The notes under the pieces were generated by a model. The model saw only the letters and a list, made by a program, of their open reading frames with translations. It was not told the DNA's origin and ran no database searches. Made by a program: the position numbers and the translations under genes. Source: Promethearchaeota archaeon (GTDB taxonomy: Archaea > Asgardarchaeota > Thorarchaeia > Thorarchaeales > Thorarchaeaceae). From it: a stretch of DNA of 64,000 nt. The first letter of the stretch is position 1. The number at the start of each line of letters is the position of its first letter. Positions 21,835 through 34,538 of the stretch are shown here, piece by piece. The stretch is taken from contig JBHLPF010000001.1 in assembly GCA_048939765.1 (NCBI GenBank), positions 46,073 to 110,072 of the forward strand, written 5' to 3'.

Positions 21835-22971
21835 ATGGCCGGTCGCGATTCAACAATCAACTTCTGGCAGGGGAATCAGGCATGCGCTGAAGCTGCAATT
21901 GCAGCAGGATGCCGGTTTTTCGCTGGCTATCCAATCACACCAGCTTCAGAGATAGCAGAAATCATGGCAGAGAATCTTCCAATTGTTGGAGGGACGTATC
22001 TCCAAATGGAGGACGAGATTGGTGCGATATCTGCGGTAATAGGTGCCTCATGGGGTGGCACTTTGTCAATGACAGCAACATCTGGCCCTGGCTTCAGTCT
22101 CATGCAGGAGAATATAGGATATGCAATTATGACTGAGACTCCTTGTGTCATTGTGGATGTCCAACGTGCAGGACCCAGTACTGGGCAGGCGACAAAAGGA
22201 GCACAAGGAGATTTCCAGCAATCAAGATGGGGTACACATGGTGATGTCGAGAGCATAGTATTATGTCCTAATTCTGCACAGGAAACATTCGAACTCACCT
22301 TGCGTGCCTTTCATCTCTCGGAGAAGCTTAGACATCCAGTGGTAATTCTTTCAGATGAAATTGTGGGACATTCTCGGGAGAAGGTTGTTGCGAACACCAA
22401 GGAGGACCTAAGGGTTCAGCGAAGGTATGCAGAGCCTGGAATTCCTCCATTTGATGGCTTCAATAAGGATGGTTGGATAGAGATGCCAAGGTTCGGCGAG
22501 GGACATAACCTACTAGTCACTGGATCAACACATGACAAATATGGCTATCGAAGGACCTCTGATCCCGAAGTACATGACAGACTGATTCGTCGAATCTCAG
22601 AGAAAATTCATAATGAACGTGCCTTTCTCACAGATGTGGTGGTTTCAGGTCAAGAGTCAGCTGAGTGGGGAATTATATCGTATGGGTGCACATCAAGATC
22701 GGTAGAGGAGTTGATTGCTAGAAGTTCAGGTGTCCCTCCTCTGAGATCACTACGATTGAGAACTGCATGGCCATTTCCAGATTCTGAGATAAGAGAGTTC
22801 GCCAAATCAGTTGATCGATTGCTGGTGCCCGAGCTTAGTCTAGGACAGCTCTTCAGAGAGGTTTCAAGAGTAGTTAGCGACTCTGTCGACATGGTTTCAC
22901 TAACTAAGATTGGCGGAGGATTGATGATTGAACCGGATGAAATCGTGGAAAGAATTAGGTCAGAGTCATAG
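21835..22971 (+). CDS. korA: 2-oxoacid:ferredoxin oxidoreductase alpha subunit (KorA/OorA family)
   Basis: 378 aa. N-terminal FAGYPITPASEI and the SGPGFSLMQE region are characteristic of COG0674 alpha subunits. No beta subunit gene is adjacent. Confidence 0.85.
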   Translation: MAGRDSTINFWQGNQACAEAAIAAGCRFFAGYPITPASEIAEIMAENLPIVGGTYLQMEDEIGAISAVIGASWGGTLSMTATSGPGFSLMQENIGYAIMTETPCVIVDVQRAGPSTGQATKGAQGDFQQSRWGTHGDVESIVLCPNSAQETFELTLRAFHLSEKLRHPVVILSDEIVGHSREKVVANTKEDLRVQRRYAEPGIPPFDGFNKDGWIEMPRFGEGHNLLVTGSTHDKYGYRRTSDPEVHDRLIRRISEKIHNERAFLTDVVVSGQESAEWGIISYGCTSRSVEELIARSSGVPPLRSLRLRTAWPFPDSEIREFAKSVDRLLVPELSLGQLFREVSRVVSDSVDMVSLTKIGGGLMIEPDEIVERIRSES

Positions 22972-24698
22972 TCTGTAGATGAGGGAGATGTTGGTCCAGG
23001 AGGATTGGGGTTCCCAATGATTATCACAATACTAGTTCTCATCCAGATGGCCACGGGTTGTGAGATATTTGCTTCTTCGCACCAAGGGCTGCTTATGTAA
23101 AAATGAAGAATGTGTAATCCGGGATAGATATTGAGTAGGAAGGGGACTTCTATTGATGATTTGACGTCTGCATTGTTGATTGTGAAAAAAGGTGTAAGCG
23201 CTGAATCAGCATAGATTCTCAAATCAATGAGCCCAACAATTTGACCGTTGTCATCTGTAGCATTGATATCTATCTGAGTAGTTTCCCCATAATAGACAAG
23301 ACCAAGCTCTACATCAACATCAATGACTCCATGAATATTGATTTCCAAGTCAATTGAATCCTGAACACTGTACGCGCTTTCAAGCATTTCAATGGACATT
23401 ATATGAGGGCCCAGTGATGTATTACTGCTGATAGGGAATGTTATCTCCGCTTGACTGTTTGCAGTGACTGATATGGTAGCATTGATTTCTCCAATTGAAT
23501 CAAAGATTTCTATTGGGATAAGCTGGTCTTGTAGTGATGTGGAATTAATGCTTACAGTCAAGGTGACGTTGTTTCCTCGCGCGGTAGACCAAGTAGCATT
23601 TGTGGTTGAAAGATAGACAACATAAGGTGTAACGTCAATTATGACCGATTCAGATTCGTTTCGATAGAGAGGATTAACTGCTGTAAGATTCACAGAATAG
23701 AAACCTGGTTCCACAGTGATCGGTATTGATGCACTGTAGAGTCCGTTGCCAAGTTTGTTCATCGTACCCGAAGAAAATGTCGTGGTCCACAGAATCGAAC
23801 TATCAGAAATCGGCTGACTGTCTTGTGTCTTCTGTTCTACCACTATGTCAGCTGATTCGGTTTGACTGCCATCTGGTGTTTGACAATGAATTGATGGCGG
23901 TGTAGACAAGATTGTCAGATTGGAAACGGCCCTTGTTACCACAAGTGGAAAAGAATTTGAGAAGGGAAGGAAGCTTTCCGTTCCATTGCCCGCTATCGTG
24001 ACTGTGTAATCTCCAGGCGGACCAGTAGTGTCAGTCCAGTTAATCCTTAGTTCTCCGTCTGAGGAAGTTGTCGTATCAATTTGCAGTATTGAATCAGATG
24101 TGGAATTGAGAAGTGTGACTGTCACAGGGCTGTTTCTATATGGAATGGATTGGTTGAGTGCACTTGCAACTTTGAAGTCTAGGGTGGAATTTGTGTTGAA
24201 TTCAATGTTCAACGGTGATAGTGGAAGAACATTAAGATGGCCCCTTGTTATATTCACAACAACAGTATCTCCCTCGCCCTGTGAGTAGGAATCATAGATC
24301 TCCACGTTGAAAATCACAAAGGCTTGAGCACCATTTACTCCTGGTGAGGTGTCTTCTGGGAGGATAGTGTAGGATGAGTTGAAATGTCTTACATCAGTTG
24401 AGGGTGGGACGTAATAGAGGTCTGAGAATGCAGGCCCTTGATCGGTCACTACCGCAAAGGACACGTAACACCACCCATCTCCACTGAAATCAGCAATTAG
24501 CTCAGCAACCATGTTCATTGTTTCGCCGACCTCATACACTAGCTTGTCAGTTTCGAAGTAGTGGAATTCGAAGTAGAACGCAGAAACAGGTGCGACAAGA
24601 CCGAATACAATACATGTGGAAACAATGACTGATGCTAGTGTCCTTTGGCTCAAGAAACCCACCAAAACCCGGTCAGTATGTTGCCTAAAAAACAGCAC
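22650..24698 (-). CDS. Secreted or cell-surface glycoprotein (signal peptide, Ig-like repeats, many N-glycosylation sequons)
   Basis: 682 aa. N-terminal hydrophobic signal/anchor (TLASVIVSTCIVFGLVAPVSA) and about 30 N-x-S/T sequons. The S/T/P-rich C-terminal tail is encoded antisense to the last 321 nt of korA. The true 3' end is therefore uncertain. Confidence 0.6.
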   Translation of the reverse strand: MLFFRQHTDRVLVGFLSQRTLASVIVSTCIVFGLVAPVSAFYFEFHYFETDKLVYEVGETMNMVAELIADFSGDGWCYVSFAVVTDQGPAFSDLYYVPPSTDVRHFNSSYTILPEDTSPGVNGAQAFVIFNVEIYDSYSQGEGDTVVVNITRGHLNVLPLSPLNIEFNTNSTLDFKVASALNQSIPYRNSPVTVTLLNSTSDSILQIDTTTSSDGELRINWTDTTGPPGDYTVTIAGNGTESFLPFSNSFPLVVTRAVSNLTILSTPPSIHCQTPDGSQTESADIVVEQKTQDSQPISDSSILWTTTFSSGTMNKLGNGLYSASIPITVEPGFYSVNLTAVNPLYRNESESVIIDVTPYVVYLSTTNATWSTARGNNVTLTVSINSTSLQDQLIPIEIFDSIGEINATISVTANSQAEITFPISSNTSLGPHIMSIEMLESAYSVQDSIDLEINIHGVIDVDVELGLVYYGETTQIDINATDDNGQIVGLIDLRIYADSALTPFFTINNADVKSSIEVPFLLNIYPGLHILHFYISSPWCEEANISQPVAIWMRTSIVIIIGNPNPPGPTSPSSTDYDSDLILSTISSGSIINPPPILVSETMSTESLTTLETSLKSCPRLSSGTSNRSTDLANSLISESGNGHAVLNRSDLRGGTPELLAINSSTDLDVHPYDIIPHSADS

Positions 24699-25311: not shown

Positions 25312-26349
25312 GTGTGGTCTTTGATTGATGAAACATTCGAGGCTATTCAAAACTCGTCTTGGTCTTGCCCCGACTGTTCCGGTCTGATAACGGCAAACCA
25401 GGGCTATATAGTATGTGTAGAATGCGGTCTAGTAATCTCTAGAGAATACGTGTCACCTACCTACCAGATGGGTGAAAAGGTATCTGACAGTGCACCTGAT
25501 GCAAGTGTATACGTATCTCTTGGCAATCGTATGCATATTGTTGACGGGTTGGGGAGCTATATTGGCTTCCATAAGGACAGATATTTCCAGGATGCACAAG
25601 GTCAGACTCTTACAGCACGATCGCAGAAGAAATTCAAGCGGCTTAAGATGATATACAGCACACGAATACGGATTGGCCGAAACGAGGCAAAGTATAGAGC
25701 CCTCAGAACTCTCAACCATGTTTCTAAGCTACTTATGCTAAATGAACAGGTCCGTGATCGTACTGCCTATCTATACAAGAAGATATCCTCTGAGTCTTCA
25801 GAAAAGATTAACAACAATATCCTGCTCATAGCTGTATGCCTTCTGATGGCTGTTAGAGAGTTCAAGGACGGAGCACCAATCACCTTGGATGAGATAGCCA
25901 ATACATTCGAGAAATGTGGTCATCGTGTTAACGTCAGGGCTATTGTTAGAGAGGCATTGAAACTCAAATCGCTGACAGGTGTTGCCCCCGAAATTCGTCG
26001 TCCAGATGACTATGTGCCAAGGGTCTTGTCCATGTTGATGAACAGTGAAAAGGTGCTCAGAAAAGTGATAGCTCGTGGATGGGAGCCAAAGAAGTATGAG
26101 AATGCTCTCAGAGATAAAATCCTTGAAGTTCTAGAAATGATACCGGCTTCAAAGAGAGGAGGAAGGAACCCCTTCATATTCACTGTTTCTGCTGCCTACG
26201 CAAGCGATCGTCTAGTTGCAGATGAGCATGGAAGGCGTTCTGTACTTACTCAGAAGCTTGCCTCAGAAGCGACTGAGGTGGCTGAGTACAGCATTCGGGA
26301 CCATTTCGGAATGATGAAGAAAGTGCTTGCAGTGGTTTCTCTAACCTAG
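25312..26349 (+). CDS. tfb: Transcription initiation factor IIB (TFB)
   Basis: 345 aa. N-terminal zinc ribbon CPDCSG...CVECG, B-finger/linker and two cyclin-fold repeats. Confidence 0.9.
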   Translation: MWSLIDETFEAIQNSSWSCPDCSGLITANQGYIVCVECGLVISREYVSPTYQMGEKVSDSAPDASVYVSLGNRMHIVDGLGSYIGFHKDRYFQDAQGQTLTARSQKKFKRLKMIYSTRIRIGRNEAKYRALRTLNHVSKLLMLNEQVRDRTAYLYKKISSESSEKINNNILLIAVCLLMAVREFKDGAPITLDEIANTFEKCGHRVNVRAIVREALKLKSLTGVAPEIRRPDDYVPRVLSMLMNSEKVLRKVIARGWEPKKYENALRDKILEVLEMIPASKRGGRNPFIFTVSAAYASDRLVADEHGRRSVLTQKLASEATEVAEYSIRDHFGMMKKVLAVVSLT

Positions 26350-26399: not shown

Positions 26400-28094
26400 A
26401 TGGAGGAAGATAGGCTGGAATTGATCAGATGTCCAGACACAAGATGCAAGGATTGCTCTGAGATGACCGCGTCAGAATGCACCAGAATCTCTATGCTATT
26501 CGAAGAAGGGAATAGAAAGAAGGTGCTAATTCTGGAAGATTCGAGAAGGCTTCTTCATCTGGGTGGACTGACTGATCCAATCCCAACAAGTCCTCCTTGG
26601 AGAGGTGATGGATGGGAATCGGTCTATATAGGTGATTGCGAGTTTCCAGACAGTGATTGGCTTCCAGTAGATGCCTACTTGGTAGGACCATATCTTTCAT
26701 TCTACTTCTCAAGAACAGGCGGAATGGAGATATTTCATCGGTCGTATCCACTAGTGAAGACTTCGATCGAGTATGGACTCATGCAGGAACTGAATGAGTC
26801 TATTGGCAGTAATCTCCAGGAATCAATAGGAAGGTCCGATGTTTCCACTCGGCTTTTGCAGGTTGCTGACAGTGTTTGTAAGAAGCTCCTGAAATCTTTG
26901 CCCGAGATAAGCACTGCGACACGAGAGAGAATTTCTACGATTGTGGCAAACAAAACGACTGTGCTAGATACATTCCTTCCAATTCTATTGGATGATGATG
27001 TTGAAGAAGTGTACGTGGATTGTCCAGGAAAGCCAATCTATTTTGATCATCGTAGGCTAGGAAGATGTATCTCAAAATATGAGATTCATCACGAAGATGT
27101 CCCTCGTCTTACCACACTGTTACGTGCAGAGAGCAATCTCCATCTTGATAGAAGAAATCCTTCCTTGAAGACTGATTTGAATCTCTTTGATACCAATCTG
27201 CGAGTATCTGCCAGCCTACCGCCGCTAAGCCCTGATGGATTGCACATGGAAATTCGGCGGGCGAGGAGGAATGCTTTCACCATTTTGGACCTAATTTGGA
27301 ATGGAACACTGCCTATTGAAGCGGCGGCAGCGCTTCTTCTGGCACTTGGGTGCAGATTCAACATAACGATAACCGGAGGTCCCGGGACCGGCAAGACTAC
27401 TCTATTGAATGCACTTGACGCGGATAGTCCAAAAACCTGGAGAAAAATCTACATAGAAGATGCAGTAGAAAGCAGAGATCTTCGCGGTCACAACCAAGTT
27501 CGTTTCAAAGTCGACCCAGTTGATGAAGTAGATGGGCATTTTGATAAATCGTTAGAAATCGTCAAGACCCTCCATAGGTCACCAGACTATCTTGTGCTTG
27601 GTGAGATTCAAACTGCAGAACATAGCCAAGCGCTTTTCCAAGCTATTGCAGCTGGTCTTCGTGCAATACAAACCTGTCATAGCTCCTCAGCAGCCAGTCT
27701 TGTGTCACGTTGGATCACTGGACATAATATCGACAAATCCAGTATCGCCATGATGGATTTGATTGTGACAATGGTACGACCAGTACCCGGAGAGTCGATT
27801 AGGAGAGTCAGTGAGATTGTTGAAGTGCAACGAGAGGTTTCAGAAGGTGTACTCAAATTCGTAGGACTCAGTACTGTCTACAATTGTAATTCATCCCAAG
27901 ATTTGCATTGGGCAACGGACGGCGCGTATCTTTCTTATGCACGGGCAGCTGGACATGAAAGCCACATCCAAGCATACGACAGAATAATTGATCACCTATC
28001 CAAGAGATTACGAACAGCAGACAGGAGCAATGGTCGAACATTGGGAAAAGATGTCTGGACTGAAGGACTGCCATTGTGGTTTGCACACATCTGA
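26400..28094 (+). CDS. FlaI/VirB11/GspE-family secretion ATPase with a Cys-rich N-terminal extension
   Basis: 564 aa. Walker A ITGGPGTGKTTLLNALD, Asp box/Walker B KIYIEDAVE and His box RSPDYLVLGEIQTAEH. The N-terminal roughly 100 aa contain CPDTRCKDC...C. No FlaJ/TadC-like polytopic partner is adjacent. Confidence 0.75.
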   Translation: MEEDRLELIRCPDTRCKDCSEMTASECTRISMLFEEGNRKKVLILEDSRRLLHLGGLTDPIPTSPPWRGDGWESVYIGDCEFPDSDWLPVDAYLVGPYLSFYFSRTGGMEIFHRSYPLVKTSIEYGLMQELNESIGSNLQESIGRSDVSTRLLQVADSVCKKLLKSLPEISTATRERISTIVANKTTVLDTFLPILLDDDVEEVYVDCPGKPIYFDHRRLGRCISKYEIHHEDVPRLTTLLRAESNLHLDRRNPSLKTDLNLFDTNLRVSASLPPLSPDGLHMEIRRARRNAFTILDLIWNGTLPIEAAAALLLALGCRFNITITGGPGTGKTTLLNALDADSPKTWRKIYIEDAVESRDLRGHNQVRFKVDPVDEVDGHFDKSLEIVKTLHRSPDYLVLGEIQTAEHSQALFQAIAAGLRAIQTCHSSSAASLVSRWITGHNIDKSSIAMMDLIVTMVRPVPGESIRRVSEIVEVQREVSEGVLKFVGLSTVYNCNSSQDLHWATDGAYLSYARAAGHESHIQAYDRIIDHLSKRLRTADRSNGRTLGKDVWTEGLPLWFAHI

Positions 28095-28118: not shown

Positions 28119-28364
28119 TTGAGGGTAGTTAAAATACCATTCCATGGACAGGTAATCAGGTGGAATTCTATGTACGACCCGATAAGGGATGAAAAGGGCG
28201 GTCCGCTGGTTGAGGAGAGTCTCCTGCTTGGTATTGCAGTAGTCACCGTATCGATAGTCATTGCTGTGATACTTCAGGCAACAGGTTGGGCACAAGACGT
28301 TGTGGCAGGACTCTTTCAGATTCTTGAAGACAGCTGGAGTAGCTTCACAAGTCTATTTCCATGA
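28119..28364 (+). CDS. Small membrane protein, possibly a type IV pilin-like (class III signal peptide) protein
   Basis: 81 aa. A charged segment (RDEKGG) is followed by a roughly 22-residue hydrophobic helix (LLLGIAVVTVSIVIAVIL), then a second hydrophobic stretch. Sits immediately downstream of the secretion ATPase. Confidence 0.35.
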   Translation: MRVVKIPFHGQVIRWNSMYDPIRDEKGGPLVEESLLLGIAVVTVSIVIAVILQATGWAQDVVAGLFQILEDSWSSFTSLFP

Positions 28365-28461
28365 TAAGTGAAACACTGCTGATGTGATTTTGGTCACGAT
28401 TTGGGGAAAGCCTTATTTGTAGTCTAGAGTGAGCACACCCGCTCCGGACTGGTGCGCCTTA

Positions 28462-28575: not shown

Positions 28576-30540
28576 CTATCTTCCTATTAGACGCCGCCGC
28601 CACAGAACTGGTATGCTAGCAAGCATGACTGATACACCAAGACTGATCAAAATGAAAGGAATTCCTACGCCTTGGGCAGCCATTGCTTCTGTGCTAGAAA
28701 TGATAAGGACATGGTAGCCAGTAGAAGATTGTGTGAACGCGGCTTCCTCTGTTTCATAATAGAGGTTATAGACGCCTGATTCCGTAGGAATGCGAAGAGC
28801 AATCTCAACGATACCCGAATCGTGACTCTTAGTAAGACTCCGTTGACCTAACCACTCATAGTGCAGATTCACATCTTCTAGAGGGGTGCCATTCAACGCT
28901 ATGATGGACAATTGAACTGTAATTTCTTGAAGAGATGGATAGACGGAGTAATTCACCATATTCACAGATACTGGAACGACTCTGCTGACAATGATTTCAT
29001 ATTCTAGGACTACGGGCAGTTCGTAGTTCAATGTGCTACCGTTATAGCCTATGACTAACAGATAGGGACCTTCTACTGAAGAAATGGGGAATTTCGCTTC
29101 GGTAACACCCTCACTATTGGTAGTAGAGGTGGTCACCAAGTGGTTTCCAATTTGCCAGGCAATTGATCGTTCTGGTATATAGATTCCACCGGCATTTAGC
29201 TGAATTTGGAATGTCACAACTTGAGAAGGGGATGCATAGCCCAGTATGCTTTGATAAATCATGATGATATTCGGCTGCGACCAGACTATCACTGGGATTA
29301 TTCTAGTCTTATTTATCAAGAATGAATGCGAAACTTCGAAGTGTAGATTTCTAGGCCCAAGGGGACCATGGAACGTAATGTGCGACATAGTTTTGATTTG
29401 TCCAAAGGAGAATGAAATCAAACGTGACTCGTTGGTGAGTTCATCGTACAATATTATAGTGGCATTGGGAATCGGTCTCATTAAGAGATCATAGAGTGTC
29501 ACTTGGACTTCACTTTCTACTCCTACTGAGATTGGATCTGGCAACTCAATGTAAATTGCTGCGGGGCTTATTACAGATATGTCAAATTCGATGTATGATG
29601 GTGCATAACGGAATGTCCCCGAATATTCTATCCTAATGCTGTGTATCCCAAGTATATACCGTGAATCAATATCCAGGCTGAACCTGGCAACACCATTCAT
29701 GTCGCTCACGATAGCATCTATTGGGTTTTCATCAAGAAACACAACAAGTGATGCGTCAGAGTGATTCTGACCCTCAGCTTGAATTGTCATCTGCACCCAG
29801 AATGAATCATTCAAATGAACGGTAGAGTTGTAGGAATCTTCTAGTTCAATAGATGTTGCTATTTGTTGAATGTTCACAGATATCAAACTCTGTGAACTGT
29901 TTAGAAATCGTGCCATATCCTGTTCGAAAACTATTCTCAACGTATTCTGTCCAGTTATGCACCATGTGCCATTGCAATCTATAATGAAAGTTGCATAGCC
30001 GCTGGCATTCGTTGGAGCAACTGCTAGGAGTGTGTCTTCACTATAAACAGCCATAGTGACCCCACTAATTGATGCATTATGGTCATCAGTGATTTTGGCA
30101 ATGAGAGCAGTTTCATCCTCTGGATGAATAGAGTTCTCGTCGACCTGAACCTCTATGACAGTCGCAGAAACCACAATGACAGAAGACCATTGGCAGGAAG
30201 AAGATAAGGAAAGCGAGGTGTTTCCCTCAAATGTTACGTTTAGCATGGATGGCCCTAAGGGATGATTAATCGAAACGTTCCAAGACACTGTTGCATAGCC
30301 ATTTGTGTCTGTCAAGGCAGACCCAATGAGGACGTCTTGGGTCTGATCGTAGAAGAAAAGACGCTGATTAGCAACCGGATTTCCGTAAGTGCCGTTTTGA
30401 AGGAGTCTTGCAGTAATAGGCAATGAATCTCCACGTACCACAACAGGGATTTCCTCTGCCGATGCTACATCTGCAGTCAAACTAGATACCAAGACCAGTG
30501 CCGCCGATATCATTACTATTCCTATGCAGACTCGCTTCAA
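28576..30540 (-). CDS. Cell-surface glycoprotein (N-terminal signal peptide, repeated beta-rich modules, C-terminal transmembrane anchor)
   Basis: 654 aa. Signal peptide MKRVCIGIVMISAALVLVSSLTADVASA and many N-x-S/T sequons. C-terminal TM helix GVGIPFILISLGVSVMLASIPVLW followed by RRRLIGR. Paralogous in architecture to 22650..24698. Confidence 0.7.
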   Translation of the reverse strand: MKRVCIGIVMISAALVLVSSLTADVASAEEIPVVVRGDSLPITARLLQNGTYGNPVANQRLFFYDQTQDVLIGSALTDTNGYATVSWNVSINHPLGPSMLNVTFEGNTSLSLSSSCQWSSVIVVSATVIEVQVDENSIHPEDETALIAKITDDHNASISGVTMAVYSEDTLLAVAPTNASGYATFIIDCNGTWCITGQNTLRIVFEQDMARFLNSSQSLISVNIQQIATSIELEDSYNSTVHLNDSFWVQMTIQAEGQNHSDASLVVFLDENPIDAIVSDMNGVARFSLDIDSRYILGIHSIRIEYSGTFRYAPSYIEFDISVISPAAIYIELPDPISVGVESEVQVTLYDLLMRPIPNATIILYDELTNESRLISFSFGQIKTMSHITFHGPLGPRNLHFEVSHSFLINKTRIIPVIVWSQPNIIMIYQSILGYASPSQVVTFQIQLNAGGIYIPERSIAWQIGNHLVTTSTTNSEGVTEAKFPISSVEGPYLLVIGYNGSTLNYELPVVLEYEIIVSRVVPVSVNMVNYSVYPSLQEITVQLSIIALNGTPLEDVNLHYEWLGQRSLTKSHDSGIVEIALRIPTESGVYNLYYETEEAAFTQSSTGYHVLIISSTEAMAAQGVGIPFILISLGVSVMLASIPVLWRRRLIGR

Positions 30541-30761
30541 ACATAGTCACTCCGTTTCTTGTGATAGTAGATTGCAACTATGCAAAAGACTCATGCATTG
30601 TGCGTTCTGAGTTCTCTCATGAGTCTGTATTCGAGTTTTTAATCTCCTATCGAACCATCAGATTCTGGGGGAGTTCATATGTAATTGTGAATCACCAAGG
30701 GTAGACTGTAAATTCGTAAGAGGCATTCACAGTGCTCTAGCTCCGGACGGGTGATAACACA

Positions 30762-33700
30762 GTGTCCAGCCATGAATTAAGCAAGGGAGACCGATTTAGA
30801 GTACCATCTAGGAAGGATCTTCCAGGGCTGTGGAAATGGATTGAGCTTGGATGGCTCACTAGCATTTCTATCTTGACTCTTTACTTCATAGTAGTCTACT
30901 TGCTCCCGTTACTGGGACTAATCACCCCAGTTTCAATCCCATCGAAACTGTTCATTGAAGTCATAATCTCCATAGGTCCGGTGTTGATGGGTGTGCTAGT
31001 GGCTCGCAGAAAGCTAGCCTTCGAGCAATCATTGACTGCAGTTTTGGATGATGATTTAGTGGCAATGAACATTGGAAACCATATTGTGGCAACATGCTGC
31101 CTTGATATCATGTCTGCACCCGGCTCAGTCCATATTTCTCGGAATGATCGACCGGAATACGCTACTGCTTTCCTTTTAGCACTTCGCGCAGGAATGAATG
31201 AGAAGGTCAGTATGGCATATGAGGTGGGTGTATGGAGAGGTGAGGCTTTTCTGCGGATTTTCATAACTGGAATAGGCAAGAGTAAGGAAGAGGTTGGGAA
31301 TATTCTTAGACATGAGGCGACTCGAGCAGAGGCTATTTTGATATCCTCCCTTAACAATGTGGAACTCCATCAGCTTAGAGGAGAAAGCCTCAGGGATGCG
31401 GTGTCAGGCATCCTATCTCTTGACTTGGAAGGTAACTCATCCAGAGAGCTGCATACCGTATTGTTGCTGATTAATGGAGAGCCGCGCGTCGCGCCCAGTC
31501 TGGAAAGCTCTCAGATTGGAACTTTCCTCTCTGTTTCACTTCGGCAAGGATACGATGTAAGTCTCACATGTGTCTTTTCGAAAGCTAAACCTGGTCGTGA
31601 ACAGAGAAAACTGGAAGGGCAATGGAAAACAATTCGGGAGAAAGAGAAACGGAACGAAGACTCCTTGGCAGACCATTCAGAGAAGAAGAAGCTGTTACGC
31701 GATTATGAGGAGATACAGGAGAATACTGGCTGGTTTGATTCCTCAGTTTCTCTTGCGGTAAGAACAGACGATTCTGAACATCTTTCAAGCATTCAGGAGG
31801 CGGTGTGCGGTGTTGTTCACTCCATATGGGGAGGAGATGGCAAAGTCAAGTTGAAACCTAAAGCTATAGGAAAGAATGTAGCTTACAGGCTTCTTCTTAG
31901 AAGACATATTACATCGCAAAGGACTCACGTGAGTAGATTGGCTGCTTTCTTGAATACACCGGTCCAGCAGTTGCCTGTCATTGCTGCATCCCCTGTGCCC
32001 GCCTTCACAATTCCATCAAGAAAGTTGGTGAACAACGAGTTCGTCATTGGAAAGGCTGTTTTTGGCGGACGGCGAATAAATGATGTCGGTTTGAAACCCG
32101 AATGGCTCCGGGAGCATGTAGCTGTACTTGGAGCAACAGGCACAGGAAAGACTACTCTTGTGAAACACCTTATTGCCGAACTAAGTAAGAAGTCGAGTGT
32201 TCCATGGTGGATCTTTGATGTGAAAGGATCTGAGTACCAAGAATTGGTGAACCTTTGTGACGATGATATCCTGGTATTGAAACCTGGAGTAGATCCATCG
32301 TTCGTAATTGATTTCATGGATCCAGAGACTGATTCTGGCGAGAGACATGCACACACTACGTTTGCAATATTGAAAGAACTCCTAAACGAGAGAGGTGTTT
32401 CTTCAGAACTCTCGCCTGCAATGGAAAAGCTTCTTCGTGAAGCGGTGTTAGAGGTTGCGCATGCATCAAGTAATGACAACTCGATTCAAGCATTGATTCG
32501 TGAGATATCAGATCTTGCAGGAAAGGATCGGACCGCTATCATGACGAGAGATGCACTCCTTAATCGTCTGGAGATTCTATCTAGAGAACCCCTCGGGACC
32601 ATTCTGAGTGGTGGTCGAAACGCAGTAAGGATCTCAAATCTTATGGATAAGAGGGTGATTCTTGATCTGCAGTATGTTGCTAGGACGGGTGGAATGGATG
32701 CGGCACGTTTGTTATACAATCTCATAGCTAAACGCATCTTTGACTATGCATTACACAGAGGGATAAAGCCAGGTCTTCATCATTTAGTAGTCCTCGAAGA
32801 AGCCAGCAATCTTGTACCTGAAAGCTATACGAGGCATACAGCTGCAGATGTCACCACAGGAGAGTCCATGGTTATGCTCCAGCGGGCAACAGGACAAGGT
32901 GTAGTTGTAATATCAACTCGACCGAATGTTTCTTCGAATATTCTGGCAAACACAGCCACGAAAATTGCCTTTCGACTTCCGTATGATAGTCCCATTGGTG
33001 CCAGATTCATGTCCCTTGATGATGAACAAGAACGGTATCTCAAGACACTGAAGCGTGGAAGAGCGCTGATTGTCTTGCCAGGGACAGAACCGTTCGAGAT
33101 AGCAACTCGACCATTTGAAATGGCCAGCATTCTTGAGAGACCGCCTTTGGAGCCAAGTATTCATGATGAAAGAGAGATTCCAGAGTCTAAAGATGCATCT
33201 ATAGAACATGATACAACAATTCAATCTGGAAGCTTTGACTCTTCTTCAAAGCCAATGGGAGCAGTGTATGACCGATTGGGAGAATTGGGGTCGCATATTG
33301 TTGCGTTTCTTGCCTCTCGGAATATGGCAACCCAAGCTGAAATGGAAGAGATTTTGACAGCAATCGATCCAAGAATGGAAAGTAGCGACATAAACGAGGT
33401 TATTCGTGACTTGGTTTCCTTGGGGACCATTGAGAGAGAAGCTTTACCAATTGTGCCAGGCGACTTCATTTTTACTTTGCCGGGAAGAGGACTTGATGCA
33501 GTAAGCATGATGATAACTGACTATATCATCGAGAAGCTTGGTTTGCATGATGTCACATGGGAACGAAATCTAGATGACAGGCCTGATATCGTTCTTGACG
33601 ACAGGGCGATATTGATACTTCCTCAACATCTCAAAGCATCATCAATGAAAACAACAGTGAACAAAATTCGGAATTATATGAATAATCTGGGTAATGATTT

Positions 33701-34538
33701 CATCGAATTGGTTGTTGTCGTCAGAGGGAGTGTTGCTGCAGCCAAGCTCAGAGAAACAATGAGTGAAACAAATGAGTTTGATGCAGTAAGCATAGTTTCA
33801 GCTTTTCCTAGTTCACTTGATGCAATGATTGAGAACCTAGCAATGGGAACCTCGACTAATGTAGGCTTGACAACTAGCGAGCATAAAACCCGGGCTGATG
33901 CTGGAGTGAATCTCATTGGCGCTATGCATGGTGTTGGAACAGCGACAAACCGTGCAATACAGATGCGACTGTGGTTTCAGTTGATACAAGATTTCGTGGA
34001 TTTGTCAAATGGTAGAACCGAATGGAATGTCTTGCTAGAGTTCATTGAAACAACTGCCCTTCAATCACTTAGGGGGAAAACCACTCCAATGAATATAGAA
34101 GAAGGAAAGCGTGCATTGACAGAGCTGCTAGCGGATGAAGTCCTGATGGCTTTGCGCGTTGGAAATGATCTTGATTTCATTGATTTGGAGGAGGGCCTTT
34201 GGATTGTGAACTCTGGTGAGCTAGGAAAACTCAAGGATTCAGCTGTAGATGCTCTTGAAAAGGAACTACGAAAACGGCAGAATTCGGTTTCCCGCGATCA
34301 TGGCTACTATGATCTCTGTACAAATGGTGTTTCTTACGTGGTCTTTCCGAATCAGCAACAGCTCAATACGCTGCTTCACCTTCAAAGTGATATTGCATGC
34401 AGGACTTGCAAGTCAAGACGAATTGTCTGTGTGCTGACTGCTGCTGAGTATCTTGAGGAAACAATGGTTATGCCGGACAACGTCCTACTCTATGACTTCT
34501 CGGAGTATGTTTCTGTAGCCAGTGCGGCAGGACAATAA
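30762..34538 (+). CDS. Large membrane-anchored P-loop ATPase of the HerA/FtsK/VirB4 superfamily (DUF87-like core) with an uncharacterised roughly 500-aa C-terminal region
   Basis: 1258 aa. Two N-terminal TM helices (residues about 30-80). Walker A VAVLGATGTGKTTLVKHL near residue 455 and Walker B HHLVVLEEASNLVP, as in HerA/VirB4-type hexameric ATPases. No recognisable domains in the first 430 or last 500 residues. Confidence 0.7.
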   Translation: MSSHELSKGDRFRVPSRKDLPGLWKWIELGWLTSISILTLYFIVVYLLPLLGLITPVSIPSKLFIEVIISIGPVLMGVLVARRKLAFEQSLTAVLDDDLVAMNIGNHIVATCCLDIMSAPGSVHISRNDRPEYATAFLLALRAGMNEKVSMAYEVGVWRGEAFLRIFITGIGKSKEEVGNILRHEATRAEAILISSLNNVELHQLRGESLRDAVSGILSLDLEGNSSRELHTVLLLINGEPRVAPSLESSQIGTFLSVSLRQGYDVSLTCVFSKAKPGREQRKLEGQWKTIREKEKRNEDSLADHSEKKKLLRDYEEIQENTGWFDSSVSLAVRTDDSEHLSSIQEAVCGVVHSIWGGDGKVKLKPKAIGKNVAYRLLLRRHITSQRTHVSRLAAFLNTPVQQLPVIAASPVPAFTIPSRKLVNNEFVIGKAVFGGRRINDVGLKPEWLREHVAVLGATGTGKTTLVKHLIAELSKKSSVPWWIFDVKGSEYQELVNLCDDDILVLKPGVDPSFVIDFMDPETDSGERHAHTTFAILKELLNERGVSSELSPAMEKLLREAVLEVAHASSNDNSIQALIREISDLAGKDRTAIMTRDALLNRLEILSREPLGTILSGGRNAVRISNLMDKRVILDLQYVARTGGMDAARLLYNLIAKRIFDYALHRGIKPGLHHLVVLEEASNLVPESYTRHTAADVTTGESMVMLQRATGQGVVVISTRPNVSSNILANTATKIAFRLPYDSPIGARFMSLDDEQERYLKTLKRGRALIVLPGTEPFEIATRPFEMASILERPPLEPSIHDEREIPESKDASIEHDTTIQSGSFDSSSKPMGAVYDRLGELGSHIVAFLASRNMATQAEMEEILTAIDPRMESSDINEVIRDLVSLGTIEREALPIVPGDFIFTLPGRGLDAVSMMITDYIIEKLGLHDVTWERNLDDRPDIVLDDRAILILPQHLKASSMKTTVNKIRNYMNNLGNDFIELVVVVRGSVAAAKLRETMSETNEFDAVSIVSAFPSSLDAMIENLAMGTSTNVGLTTSEHKTRADAGVNLIGAMHGVGTATNRAIQMRLWFQLIQDFVDLSNGRTEWNVLLEFIETTALQSLRGKTTPMNIEEGKRALTELLADEVLMALRVGNDLDFIDLEEGLWIVNSGELGKLKDSAVDALEKELRKRQNSVSRDHGYYDLCTNGVSYVVFPNQQQLNTLLHLQSDIACRTCKSRRIVCVLTAAEYLEETMVMPDNVLLYDFSEYVSVASAAGQ

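Follow-up and report, generated by a model that had tools for sequence, protein, structure and literature searches.

A membrane-anchored VirB4-like ATPase with a winged-helix tail, a candidate motor of DNA transfer in Asgard archaea

A gene in the stretch of DNA analyzed here (termed the window: 64,000 nt of a Promethearchaeota archaeon, assembly GCA_048939765.1, contig JBHLPF010000001.1, positions 46,073 to 110,072, forward strand) encodes a membrane-anchored, VirB4-like ATPase of 1258 amino acids (30762..34538 of the window, + strand; GTG start, TAA stop included). We give about even chances to the reading that this protein is a translocation ATPase of the VirB4 class, corresponding in Asgard archaea to CedB, CedD, and TedB, and that it drives a DNA-transfer or pilus system that is T4SS derived and Ced/Ted-like. 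Asgard archaea, the setting of the suggested DNA-exchange apparatus, are the closest archaeal relatives of eukaryotes. The open reading frame (ORF) is genuine; its full length is kept in Thorarchaeia, and full-length homologues in Thorarchaeota and Sifarchaeia metagenome-assembled genomes (MAGs) are 53-91% identical. An earlier start is excluded by an in-frame TAG at 30738-30740, and close relatives have ATG at the position of the GTG. As a previous interpretation made without database searches (the sequence-only reading) had pointed out, the protein is larger than HerA, CedB, or VirB4.

The ATPase domain (residues ~425-790; 32034..33131, + strand) was delimited with Pfam DUF87, partial NCBIfam matches, PADLOC, and motif invariance. 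The Pfam DUF87/HerA central domain matched residues 429-609 (E 8.7e-15; 55.9 bits against a cut-off of 23.2 bits), and Walker A (G457-A-T-G-T-G-K-T; 32130-32153, +) and Walker B (V-V-L-E679-E680; 32784-32801, +) are intact, with G457, K463, E679, E680, and R720 invariant in 110 full-length homologues. The DUF87 match and the Walker motifs bear out the proposed membership in the HerA/VirB4 (FtsK-HerA) superfamily, and the quoted motifs (GATGTGKTT ... VVLEEASNL) are present as given. None of the curated VirB4, CedB, CedD, and HerA HMMs was passed by the 1258-aa protein, all scores being far below the cut-offs: the best was CedD (NF053655; E 2e-11, 43.2 bits against 600 bits); the others were HerA (17-30 bits against 800-850 bits), VirB4 (TIGR00929; 25.9 bits against 643.1 bits, limited to residues 452-582), and CedB (NF041017; 15.2 bits against 700 bits). 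Across the family, 11 of 25 members match the CedD HMM (best E 1e-27, still partial), and the VirB4_CagE and CedB HMMs also give partial matches. HerA proteins are the best PDB sequence matches, and the core is closer to the HerA clade than to VirB4/TrbE/TrwK, to which sequence similarity is marginal. Two further assignments were not supported: a type IV coupling protein (VirD4/TraG/TrwB), since TrwB_AAD_bind reached 19.6 bits against a cut-off of 20.5 bits over residues 440-497 only and the N-terminal domain matches VirB4 rather than TrwB, and FtsK/SpoIIIE, since PF01580 reached 17.7 bits against 24 bits and matched only the P-loop (residues 451-474).

The HerA-like core raises the question of a defense or repair HerA, that is, an anti-phage HerA with an effector or a HerA-NurA-like end-resection helicase with a nuclease-like tail as fused effector. 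HerA_antiphage HMMs match 16 of 25 family members (best E 1.5e-12), and the PADLOC HerA and mad8 models match the ATPase core (mad8 at residues 442-788). However, these matches are partial, centered on the P-loop, and far under the cut-offs, and beyond the DUF87 P-loop core common to both, the protein differs from HerA in being membrane anchored, in having a VirB4 N-terminal domain in place of the HAS-barrel, and in the absence of NurA, Sir2, or any other effector or partner nuclease among the neighboring genes. We consider a defense or repair function very improbable.

A hydropathy scan (Kyte-Doolittle, window 19) revealed hydrophobic helices at about residues 26-53 and 61-82, consistent with the two-TM anchor that the sequence-only reading had described (residues ~26-82; 30837..31007, +), the topology of which resembles that of TrbE/VirB4-type proteins. 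Basic residues flank the helices on both sides, suggesting an N-in/C-in hairpin. The same scan found at least two hydrophobic N-terminal helices in all three distant homologues examined, namely, two in P0140, four in the Helarchaeota protein of locus L005, and, in its L081 counterpart, four together with a further helix at residue 357. An N-terminal pair of TM helices is reminiscent of VirB3-VirB4 fusions, and the hairpin could stand for VirB3.

Pfam, NCBIfam, and PDB sequence searches of the protein returned nothing outside the P-loop core, and the Pfam VirB4 N-domain PF03135 (CagE_TrbE_VirB) gave no match at E<=1. The earlier description of large uncharacterized N- and C-terminal regions with no recognizable motifs therefore stands at the sequence level; structurally, it fails for the N-terminal region (residues ~85-420; 31014..32021, +), the model of which has the VirB4-specific domain fold, with 296 of 348 residues aligning to TrwK. 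Despite the lack of sequence-level domain matches, the conservation profile shows both regions to be well conserved over the family. The protein thus has in common with VirB4/TrbE/TrwK a P-loop FtsK-HerA domain after an N domain and membrane association; it differs from VirB4 in an extra tail of ~430 amino acids and in its gene, which is chromosomal, solitary, and outside any VirB1-11 or conjugative-element cluster.

CedD, which is needed for DNA import, likewise combines TM segments, a VirB4-like N-terminal domain, and a HerA/VirB4-like ATPase, and CedB and CedD each span only part of the VirB4 N-terminal domain (PMC11868833). The layout of the 1258-aa protein is thus that of CedB/CedD from Sulfolobales, with the N domain aligning over most of its length instead of in part, and, as for CedB, CedD, and TedB, the gene is a chromosomal host gene rather than a plasmid gene. 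Compared with these proteins, it is about twice as long and carries a winged-helix/ERCC4-like tail, no CedA, CedA1, TedA, or TedC homologue was identified near its gene, and its host is an Asgard archaeon, whereas Ced (Sulfolobales) and TedB (Thermoproteales) belong to Thermoproteota. Overall, the status of the protein as a candidate membrane translocation motor is supported.

The tail (residues 832-1258) follows an acidic, Ser-rich linker (residues ~795-834; 33144..33263, +) that is poorly conserved (mean column identity, 0.30). AF2 models it as two tandem modules, each composed of a winged helix and an alpha/beta domain: module 1 with residues ~833-905 and ~910-1030 (33258..33851, +) and module 2 with residues ~1060-1150 and ~1150-1258 (33939..34535, +). 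The modules show no significant sequence homology to each other (hhalign E 0.086). In Foldseek searches, the alpha/beta domains weakly resembled ERCC4/XPF-type nuclease or pseudo-nuclease domains (XPF, Hef, ERCC1, and FAAP24; ~125 columns, TM-score [target] ~0.5, probability 0.94-0.96, E only 0.05-0.1), and the top match of the tail was a winged-helix protein, the replication terminator RTP (E 0.02). The domains of XPF/ERCC1 are paired, as are the alpha/beta modules here, but ERCC4 families have an (HhH)2 domain after the nuclease domain, while this tail has a winged helix before it.

The catalytic signature GDxnERKx3D is absent from both modules. Module 1 has a PD...(E/Q)HL(K/R) motif, in which position 955 is Q in the 1258-aa protein and 33 of 110 relatives and E in 70, and module 2 has YYDLC...FPNQQQ; no ERK motif is found. 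In module 2, H1180, C1186, FPNQQQ, and C1213-x-x-C1216 are invariant, and D1184 is found in 109 of 110. Since the acidic and lysine positions vary among relatives, an active nuclease is unlikely. The nuclease-like or effector domain that had been proposed for the C terminus therefore survives as a weak fold-level likeness (ERCC4/restriction-endonuclease-like), without the constancy of nuclease-type catalytic residues; the same fold and the same variation count for and against the fused effector of a repair HerA, respectively. XPF/ERCC1-like folds and winged helices are typical nucleic-acid-binding modules, so that the modeled tail might bind DNA; it could also bind protein rather than DNA.

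The combination of N-terminal anchor, FtsK-HerA-superfamily ATPase, and C-terminal winged-helix domains of DNA-binding type is common to this protein and FtsK/SpoIIIE. An FtsK-like DNA pump for chromosome segregation or at the division site would use the winged helices to read chromosomal polarity or termination sequences, like the FtsK gamma domain, and such a role would fit the RTP match as well as the occurrence of the gene on the chromosome at all Thorarchaeia loci recovered and, in the window, close to replication genes. Yet the N domain is VirB4 specific and not FtsK alpha/beta, two winged-helix plus alpha/beta modules replace the single gamma domain, the FtsK_SpoIIIE match is confined to the P-loop, most Asgard homologues are devoid of the tail, and the conserved neighborhood is one of surface and pilus genes. 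This function appears improbable to us, and no search placed the whole protein in a well-characterized family such as FtsK with its gamma domain. Orc1/Cdc6, MCM, GINS, and RFC genes lie near the VirB4-like gene in the window, and Cdc6 lies near it in a Ranarchaeia locus.

Homologues with the N and ATPase domains are distributed Asgard-wide and are always chromosomal and located among housekeeping genes; the family was recorded in the Thor, Sif, Hel, Ran, Hod, Njord, Frey, Odin, Baldr, Hermod, and Atabey lineages, and no member was found in IMG/VR viral contigs. A position fixed class-wide among housekeeping genes is atypical for defense islands. At L006, the locus of a distant homologue, genes for an OLD-family nuclease and a methyltransferase adjoin the gene, an arrangement that counts toward a defense role.

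Upstream of the gene lies a block of surface and pilus-type genes. It is bounded by a 682-aa MG2/Ig-like surface protein (22650..24698, - strand; weak Pfam MG2/FlgD_ig match, N-terminal hydrophobic segment), which is found at every Thor locus with enough flank. Next are a divergent TFB/TFIIB paralogue of 345 aa (25312..26349, +; Pfam TFIIB repeat and Zn ribbon; NCBIfam TFIIB 57 bits against a cut-off of 384 bits) and a T2SSE-family, TadA/FlaI/VirB11-like ATPase of 564 aa (26400..28094, +; Pfam T2SSE E 1.7e-18), for which all NCBIfam scores are under the cut-offs (TadA family 98 bits, FlaI 74, TrbB 67, and VirB11 60). They are followed by a 64-aa Flp/type-IV-pilin-like protein (28170..28364, +; …EKG|GPLVEESLLLGIAVVTVSIVIAVIL…) with one TM segment, which was assigned by its G|xxxxE motif only and has no Pfam or NCBIfam match. 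A divergently transcribed 654-aa Ig-like surface protein (28576..30540, -; Pfam Big_3_5/Big_1, signal peptide, and C-terminal TM anchor by TM scan) is the conserved neighbor of the VirB4-like gene.

The TFB paralogue, the T2SSE ATPase, and the pilin occur at most about 15 kb from the VirB4-like gene in Thorarchaeia (every locus with enough flank) and in Helarchaeota (L005, L078, and L081). Because synteny in Thorarchaeia covers the whole region including housekeeping genes, co-occurrence carries little weight within that class, and the flanking genes differ between the Thorarchaeia and Helarchaeota clusters. In both Thor and Hel, the T2SSE ATPase is found alongside the VirB4-like gene, near which the pilin-like protein is likewise kept at Thor/Sif loci and at L005 and L078 of Helarchaeota. 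The TFB paralogue is ~42% identical to the product of the gene directly upstream of the VirB4-like gene in the three Helarchaeota loci. Thorarchaeia, Helarchaeota, and an unplaced lineage (L085) also have Ig-like surface-protein genes near the cluster; at L085, a homologue of the 654-aa protein (24.5% identity over 538 aa, E 7e-15) stands beside the gene for P0140 in the same divergent arrangement. In the Odin, Baldr, Ran, Atabey, and Hermod loci, the VirB4-like gene is alone within +-10 kb.

These neighbors suggest a DNA-exchange apparatus, and they also argue for an accessory motor serving a surface filament, of type IV (Tad/Flp-like) or another kind, or a secretion system; such a motor would act with the T2SSE ATPase in pilin extraction and assembly or in export of Ig-like proteins, moving protein and not DNA. 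Bacterial VirB4 is required for pilin dislocation and pilus biogenesis. EccE proteins, from the type VII system for protein secretion, are the second-best structural matches of the N domain, and at the Helarchaeota locus L081 the ATPase is followed by a 6-TM protein in a platform-protein-like layout. Type-IV-filament systems, however, are not known to use a VirB4/HerA-type ATPase, the Thorarchaeia cluster has no platform gene, the gene is solitary in many Asgard lineages, and a pair of winged-helix plus XPF-like modules would be more typical of a protein that handles nucleic acids; we regard a filament motor as rather unlikely. Because the neighboring ATPase and pilin resemble a Tad/Flp set rather than T4SS components, the pilus genes could serve a function unrelated to that of the VirB4-like protein. 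Neither a VirB6/CedA-like polytopic channel nor a two-helix VirB2/CedA1-like pilin was found in the 64-kb window or the loci examined, the window encodes no polytopic membrane protein, and of the two partners named in the sequence-only reading, the NurA-like nuclease was not found among the adjacent genes and the CedA-like membrane protein was not found in the window.

If the protein is a VirB4-class motor, the two-helix hairpin would anchor it in the membrane on the cytoplasmic side, in a VirB3-VirB4-fusion-like or CedD-like topology, and the complete VirB4-type N domain and the HerA-clade P-loop domain might, by analogy to VirB4, assemble beneath a membrane channel as a hexameric (or hexamer-of-dimers) ring, whose ATP hydrolysis would power substrate transfer and/or pilin extraction from the membrane; the substrate is presumed to be DNA, and the direction of transfer is likewise a presumption. 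The Thorarchaeia-specific tail, probably noncatalytic and flexibly linked, may bind DNA or a DNA-processing partner and would then fill the substrate-recruitment role of coupling proteins and relaxosomes in bacterial conjugation. The dedicated TFB paralogue, the TadA/VirB11-like ATPase, the Flp-like pilin, and the Ig-like surface proteins would be its partners in a chromosomally fixed cell-contact/DNA-exchange apparatus. In Sulfolobales, the ups and ced genes are activated by TFB3 (PMC6101594 and PMC9905601), and the association of a type-IV pilus system with a TFB paralogue is paralleled at this locus; the proposed layout, possibly including regulation by the TFB paralogue, would be analogous to Ups plus Ced under TFB3. 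The full proposal is a T4SS-derived Asgard machine for DNA exchange, fixed in the chromosome, whose VirB4-like motor would have acquired a winged-helix/XPF-like tail of its own for DNA recruitment; a Tad/Flp-like adhesion pilus and Ig-like surface proteins would act alongside this motor, with a dedicated TFB paralogue in control. The proposal is tentative and, in our estimate, possible but doubtful; if true, the lineage from which eukaryotes arose would possess an independent "mating" system of the Ups+Ced type.

The sequence-only reading had also noted a conserved GCTCCGGAC-GGTG element 20 nt upstream of the start. The motif GCTCCGGACGGGTG is located at 30740-30753, so that the GTG lies 8 nt from its end (22 nt when counted from its start), and a second copy with one mismatch is found at 28441-28454; at three mismatches, the window contains 6 occurrences against 2.3 expected, which is not significant (4 of 100 shuffles reach 6). 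In the upstream alignment, the GCTCCGGAC part drifts among relatives, while GGTGAT (30750..30755, +; 6 nt before the start codon) keeps the same spacing in close and moderately distant Thorarchaeia loci. What is conserved is thus a Shine-Dalgarno-type ribosome-binding site, presumably complementary to the 3' end of archaeal 16S rRNA. GGTGAT was flagged at 15 of the 53 loci listed, all closer relatives of this locus, and one of the eight closest loci (L064) has GAGTGAT in its place.

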